Shown piece after piece: positions 50,496-50,518 of a DNA stretch of 64,000 bases. Origin of the DNA: Escherichia coli (lineage in GTDB: Bacteria; Pseudomonadota; Gammaproteobacteria; Enterobacterales; Enterobacteriaceae); the NCBI RefSeq assembly GCF_030384885.1, contig NZ_CP128613.1, one strand, 5' to 3'. The number at the start of each line of letters is the position of its first letter. Positions within the stretch are counted from its first letter, which is position 1. Under the pieces are notes generated by a model. It saw only the letters and a program-made list of their open reading frames with translations. It was not told where the DNA came from and did no database searches. A program made the position numbers and the translations under genes.

Positions 50496-50518
50496 AAGAT
50501 GCATTTAAAATACATCTT
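50496..50518. promoter_or_regulatory. NsrR operator in the ytfE promoter
   Basis: AAGATGCATTT-a-AAATACATCTT near-perfect inverted repeat about 27 bp upstream of the ytfE ATG. Confidence 0.8.

Follow-up and report, generated by a model that had tools for sequence, protein, structure and literature searches.

The 23-bp palindrome AAGATGCATTTAAAATACATCTT at positions 50496-50518 of the window, that is, of the whole 64-kb stretch of Escherichia coli chromosomal DNA analyzed here, is the NsrR operator at the ytfE promoter, an assignment to which we give a probability of about 0.97. Its basis in the present work comprises the sequence, its motif score, identity with the K-12 site, conservation, the identity of the downstream gene, and an nsrR gene carried by the near-identical reference genome. 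In vivo binding and NO-dependent derepression are published for sites that are identical to this one or differ from it by one base, and the cluster chemistry is likewise drawn from the literature. The initial annotation had proposed an NsrR operator at ytfE, and this proposal is supported by the motif score, the K-12 identity, and a one-base variant of the site in strain CFT073 that was recovered by ChIP-seq. No evidence against the NsrR operator reading was found in the analyses performed here. The ytfE operator was already known as an NsrR site, having been predicted in 2005 and later detected by both ChIP-chip and ChIP-seq. It was reportedly characterized genetically in 2006.

Operator sequence, geometry, and motif score

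The operator consists of two 11-bp arms separated by a single central base, A50507, and hence forms an 11-1-11 inverted repeat (Table 1). Complementarity between the arms extends to 10 of the 11 positions, the sole mismatch being C50502 versus A50512, such that the near-perfect inverted repeat described in the initial annotation is confirmed, with its coordinates exact.

Table 1. Coordinates of the operator, of neighboring elements at ytfE, and of RNA elements elsewhere in the window
Feature	Position	Strand	Remarks
NsrR operator	50496..50518	.	AAGATGCATTT-A-AAATACATCTT; PWM, K-12 identity, CFT073 ChIP-seq ortholog
Left half-site AAGATGCATTT	50496..50506	+	Same as the best-scoring 11-bp NsrR motif for ytfE in CFT073 (PMC5320621 Table 2)
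Right half-site, minus-strand reading AAGATGTATTT	50508..50518	-	Includes the variable position 50512
Putative -10 hexamer TAAAAT	50506..50511	+	Inferred; at the operator dyad center
Tentative NarL/NarP 7-2-7-like element TGCTACG-TA-AGGGTTA	50466..50481	.	Contains the conserved block AAGGGTTAT, 50474-50482
Shine-Dalgarno GAGG	50533..50536	+	8 nt upstream of the start codon; unchanged across the 19 aligned genomes
ytfE, hemerythrin-like di-iron iron-sulfur cluster repair protein	50545..51207	+	220 aa; Pfam, PDB 5fnn, RefSeq
Mg2+ riboswitch, mgtA leader	14671-14786	-	Rfam, above gathering score
naRNA4 (REP-derived), two	25216-25293, 32004-32080	-	Rfam, above gathering score
STnc450	41189-41246	+	Rfam, above gathering score; upstream of paeA
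ES239 sRNA	45844-45966	-	Rfam, above gathering score; between cysQ and cpdB

To score the sequence, we built a palindromic position weight matrix (PWM) from the 11-1-11 sites reported for NsrR by ChIP-seq in CFT073 (PMC5320621 Table 4), leaving out the ytfE site and one duplicate, which gave a training set of 25 published sites. On this matrix the operator scored 30.0 bits out of a maximum of 31.1, and outscored all 25 training sites, the best of which reached 26.0 bits. The exact tail probability was ~1e-12 per position, equivalent to ~6e-8 expected occurrences per 64 kb, and the runner-up in the window scored 16.6 bits, 13 bits below the operator. A quantitative NsrR scan was one of the checks that the initial annotation had put forward, and at 30.0 of 31.1 bits there is no mismatch to the motif that would speak against the assignment.

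Three weak PWM matches were also observed in the window, at 3541-3563, 2149-2171, and 9187-9209 (16.6, 15.2, and 14.5 bits, respectively), located between rraB and argF, at the 5′ end of yjgN, and upstream of pyrL. This number compares with ~0.25-0.5 expected, and the weakest of the published ChIP sites score in this range. Because all three lie in A/T-rich DNA, they are probably composition effects. The match at 3541-3563 also resembles what we take to be ARG-box DNA of the argF/argI operator.

Inverted-repeat symmetry alone is weak evidence here, because the window contains four 11-1-11 repeats with at least 10 of 11 matches (0.67 expected in Markov-1 simulations); the specific sequence carries the weight. 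None of the shuffles matched within three mismatches.

The other three 11-1-11 repeats differ in character. The repeat at 2881-2903 is G+C-rich, lies directly after yjgM, and is probably a terminator. That at 42667-42689 is perfect (ACGGCTCCTGA-A-TCAGGAGCCGT), is flanked by the convergent pair paeA and ytfK, and is probably a terminator as well. The third, at 44460-44482, is A/T-rich (ATAAATGAGTT-A-TACTCATTTAT) and falls within a hypothetical gene (43901-44824).

Symmetry of this kind could also reflect an RNA hairpin, either the intrinsic terminator of ytfF or a structure in the ytfE mRNA leader. The position of the repeat would suit the former, given that it begins 58 nt past the ytfF stop codon (50435-50437), with A/T-rich DNA on its downstream side. 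However, the hairpin is predicted to have little stability (-4.0 kcal/mol, z = -0.76), with 40 of 200 shuffles folding at least as well, a terminator scan of 50300-50700 returned none, and there is no T-run. At the operator itself, no Rfam family matched and the tRNA scan found nothing. Moreover, if the start site near 50518 proposed below is right, most of the repeat would lie outside the ytfE mRNA. We consider the hairpin explanation highly improbable.

A different regulator that responds to NO or oxygen, such as FNR, could likewise be the protein that acts at the palindrome, in which case NsrR would play a secondary part. Effects of FNR on ytfE have been reported, and at hmp the FNR and NsrR sites overlap, the latter containing a good FNR-like sequence, TTGAT-N4-CTCAA (PMC5320621 Table 4). 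The left part of the ytfE operator, AAGATGCATTTAAA, agrees with TTGAT-N4-ATCAA in 6 of 10 bases. This leaves 4 of 10 mismatched, a match equaled or surpassed at 1674 positions of the window, whereas the full 23 bp are near perfect on the NsrR matrix and, across species, the motif accompanies Rrf2/NsrR genes and their targets. We therefore regard FNR, or another such regulator, as a very unlikely principal occupant, and an FNR site at the operator was rejected as a candidate, its consensus match being at background level.

Identity with characterized sites and conservation across species

The operator ends 26 nt before the ytfE ATG. A di-iron repair protein had been claimed for the gene downstream, and the open reading frame proved to be YtfE by Pfam domains, by its match to a solved structure, and by RefSeq annotation. 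Specifically, it has an N-terminal ScdA_N domain (PF04405, E = 8.5e-21) and a C-terminal Hemerythrin domain (PF01814, E = 3.8e-28), matches PDB 5fnn (E. coli YtfE) over its full length (E = 7.9e-144), and is annotated as ytfE by RefSeq in a record with 100% identity. Over 1.1 kb around the operator, the window and NZ_CP027579.1 (strain 2013C-4282) were 100% identical, and of 5426 complete E. coli genomes, 5416 contained this piece. The entire 64-kb window is collinear with NZ_CP027579.1, with ~11 differences, and the genes annotated there are cpdB, ytfH (minus strand), qorB, ytfF, ytfE, cycA (minus strand), and fklB (minus strand). In the RefSeq records, including that of MG1655, a binding-site annotation at the operator was not found.

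Comparison with the published ytfE operator was the second check suggested by the initial annotation, and the 23-mer turned out to be identical in K-12 MG1655. There, the operator (4,432,010-4,432,032, upstream of b4209) shares 23 of 23 bases with that of the window and has the same 26-nt distance to the ATG. The neighborhood is also held in common, with the order qorB-ytfF-ytfE and a convergent cycA, and the flanks differ by single bases only (A50486 is T and A50521 is C in K-12). The identical 23-mer occupies the equivalent position in K-12 BW2952 and in UTI89. Judged by its sequence, the operator in the window is the K-12 ytfE NsrR operator itself and not a mere relative.

The ytfE site of CFT073, AAGATGCATTTAAAATGCATCTT, has the same gene and position and shares 22 of 23 bases, the exception being 50512, where a G in place of the A of the window renders it a perfect palindrome. 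It is the top-ranked 11-1-11 NsrR palindrome with a ChIP-seq peak (PMC5320621 Table 4), and ytfE of CFT073 was induced 69.6-fold under NO stress derived from nitrate (PMC5320621). Within the operator, variation between complete E. coli genomes was observed at position 50512 alone. We counted alleles by megablast with 30-mers centered on the operator, at 100% identity over at least 80% of the length; 30-mer queries were preferred over a 43-bp query because of the variable flanks. By this count, which gives lower bounds since megablast requires an exact 28-mer and ~290 genomes with the region fell in neither class, the A allele of the window and K-12 was present in at least 4167 of the 5426 genomes and the G allele in at least 959. 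The two alleles score 30.0 (A) and 30.9 bits (G), a difference of +0.9 in favor of G, and both are compatible with the published consensus ATrCAT. In the divergent Escherichia genome GF4-3, both arms are kept and the upstream DNA is strongly diverged.

Further points of comparison are provided by the E. coli NsrR operators of hmp, hcp, ygbA, and yeaR, which have the same 11-1-11 layout, answer to the same repressor, and serve NO stress response genes. Their consensus is AAGATGCATTT-N-AAATGCATCTT, or gATGyAT-N5-ATrCATc in the form given by Rodionov in 2005 (PMC1274295), and the ytfE operator conforms to this enterobacterial NsrR consensus, 11-1-11 spacing included. The hmp, hcp, ygbA, and yeaR sites are, however, more degenerate (12-26 bits versus 30 for the ytfE operator), and several of them are combined with FNR and NarL/NarP sites.

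To assess conservation more broadly, we scanned the pattern AAGATGYAT-N5-ATRCATCTT over a genome set of 100,044 species (298 Gb). The core motif was present in at least 120 loci, against ~17 expected by our own estimate. Among the matches listed, the start of an NO-related gene lay within 300 bp of the motif in 94 of 120 loci. Families were counted as loci among the at least 120 listed, such that one locus may hold several of them: Rrf2/NsrR-like proteins were found in 34 loci, flavohemoglobin in 25, bacterial truncated globins in 22 + 10, YtfE in 18, DUF1971/YeaR in nine, NnrS in four, and multicopper oxidase in two. Searches by tblastn placed a YtfE gene just downstream of the motif in 19 loci, again among the matches listed. 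In 18 of these, all enterobacterial, YtfE was full-length and at least 84% identical, and the gap between operator and ytfE was 25-28 nt; it extended up to 85 nt in one distant homolog. The genera and species represented included Citrobacter, Enterobacter, Kosakonia, Lelliottia, Pseudescherichia, Superficieibacter, and E. albertii, among others. Such spacing and gene association are what one would predict for an NsrR operator, and for no other element.

These data bear on whether the palindrome might simply have arisen by chance in A/T-rich promoter DNA and serve no particular function. Repeats of the 11-1-11 type with at least 10 of 11 matches are not rare, as the four in the window attest, and to that extent chance could account for the symmetry. 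It does not account for a sequence-specific match at P ~1e-12, nor for a site kept from E. coli to Citrobacter, Enterobacter, Kosakonia, and others at a fixed distance from ytfE as the flanks diverge. On the strength of this conservation and the motif score, the chance reading is effectively refuted.

A separate feature was seen in non-Escherichia ytfE loci (L015, L101, L045, L078, and others). These have a conserved TTTGTGA-N6-TCAC element ~90-110 nt upstream of ytfE, which resembles a CRP site and is present in Enterobacter, Citrobacter, and related genera. In ~10 of the loci with the CRP-like element, a methyl-accepting chemotaxis-like gene is divergently transcribed. E. coli does not have the element, and there the upstream gene is ytfF, in the same orientation as ytfE.

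Putative promoter elements around the operator

In an alignment of 19 enterobacterial ytfE promoters, the hexamer at the center of the dyad was always TAAAAT, TAATAT, or TATAAT, according to genus. The TA at 50506-50507 was kept in 19 of 19 promoters, although the search pattern had left it free, and A50507 was invariant in ytfE promoters, whereas the central base differs among other NsrR sites. We infer that the -10 hexamer lies inside the operator dyad, with A50507 as the likely -11 A. With the -10 element placed there, transcription of ytfE would start near 50518-50519, leaving a 5′ UTR of ~26 nt; a CTTAT is conserved in this region of the 19 aligned promoters. In agreement with this placement, the inverted repeat has reportedly been described as overlapping the -10 element of ytfE, an observation attributed to Bodenmiller and Spiro in 2006. 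A sigma-70 promoter scan of 50300-50700 gave no full promoter, mainly for want of a -35 match. In the literature searched, no useful transcription start or footprint data for ytfE were found, and PMC10301672 makes no mention of the gene.

Upstream of the operator, at a distance of ~14 nt, the block AAGGGTTAT was conserved in the 19 enterobacterial ytfE promoters, and it forms part of a tentative NarL/NarP 7-2-7-like element (Table 1). In 18 of the 19 promoters, 20-22 nt separated the center of the best 7-2-7 match from the start of the operator. Relative to the NarL/NarP consensus TACYYMT-NN-AKRRGTA, it carries 4 mismatches out of 14 in E. coli and 2-3 in most of the other aligned genera. The E. 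coli match taken alone is not significant, with 256 equally good positions in the window. The element would be centered at approximately -44.5 relative to the putative start, and is compatible with the NarP control that has been predicted for dnrN/ytfE (PMC1274295). A sigma-54 promoter (-24 GG / -12 GC) was also considered for the upstream block and rejected by eye, the spacing being off by one and the TTGC not being kept in other genera.

One tentative, and on present evidence rather unlikely, extension of these observations is that the ytfE promoter may be composite, with its -10 element in the dyad, no -35 element, and a NarL/NarP-like element, such that full induction would need both NO and nitrate or nitrite. 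As part of the same proposal, the A/G difference at 50512 may set the NsrR affinities, or NO thresholds, of different lineages.

The repressor and the significance of the site

The gene for the repressor, nsrR, is outside the window; in NZ_CP027579.1 it is annotated at 3031297-3031722, ~34 kb beyond ytfE. Its product belongs to the Rrf2 family (Pfam), its closest solved relative being S. coelicolor NsrR (5n07/7b0c, E = 5e-19). The NsrR of the reference genome has Cys91, Cys96, and Cys102 toward the C-terminus and Val43 in the recognition helix, residues that are discussed in PMC10783083. NsrR is a dimeric Rrf2 repressor that requires its Fe-S cluster for DNA binding, and nitrosylation of the cluster by NO abolishes binding and derepresses the targets (PMC10783083; PMC9338935). 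For the ytfE site itself, Rodionov predicted the operator by comparative genomics in 2005 (PMC1274295), and the same paper cites Spiro for the mediation of NsrR repression of ytfE by the inverted repeat. K-12 ChIP-chip data (Partridge 2009) are cited by PMC5320621, and a PytfE-tnpR reporter in EDL933 was inactive in the absence of NO and became active once an NO donor was added (PMC7336997).

On this background, the following sequence of events is very probable at the operator in the window. An NsrR dimer, with its Rrf2 winged-helix fold and Fe-S cluster, would occupy both 11-bp half-sites and block ytfE transcription, presumably because the putative -10 hexamer (TAAAAT, 50506-50511) is situated in the operator center. 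Nitrosylation of the cluster by NO would then cost NsrR its DNA affinity and allow transcription of ytfE, whose di-iron product mends iron-sulfur clusters damaged by nitrosative stress.

To our knowledge, no structure of an enterobacterial NsrR bound to DNA exists. A structural model for the ytfE operator is offered by S. coelicolor [4Fe-4S]-NsrR on the hmpA1 operator (PDB 7b0c; PMC9338935), with which it has in common an Rrf2 dimer, a palindromic operator, and binding controlled by the cluster. This protein nevertheless comes from another phylum and recognizes another operator sequence, and it has Ala44 in place of the E. coli Val43 (PMC10783083).

Several features elsewhere in the window were recorded alongside the operator. 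A cluster of ~9 kb follows ytfB and reaches the window end (~54433-64000), encoding a TetR regulator, a 3-ketoacyl-ACP reductase, a sugar-phosphate isomerase, an enoyl-CoA hydratase, a CoA transferase, an FAD oxidoreductase, and a TRAP transporter. In K-12 MG1655, only the ytfA pseudogene was present beyond ytfB in the region compared, and we take K-12 to be without the cluster. Additionally, a lone RelB/DinJ-family antitoxin gene with no toxin partner annotated follows nrdG (22301-22540), and a small transposase gene follows ridA (11381-11836); both are presumably differences from K-12. The gap between ppa and ytfP (33909-34288) is merely 379 bp, and K-12, we assume, carries chpSB between these two genes. 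Five RNA elements were also detected (Table 1), and the tRNA scan returned no tRNA genes in the 64-kb window.

No stronger NsrR site than the ytfE operator is known in E. coli, and the ytfE promoter serves as an NO biosensor. Within the window it anchors the annotation, identifying the DNA as the ytfE region of E. coli, and it provides a calibration point, as a true regulatory site that can be recognized from raw sequence. What is mildly new, and incremental, is the frequency of A and G at 50512 across 5426 genomes and the conserved NarL/NarP-like block. Both the polymorphism and the block could bear on the strain-level tuning of ytfE induction.
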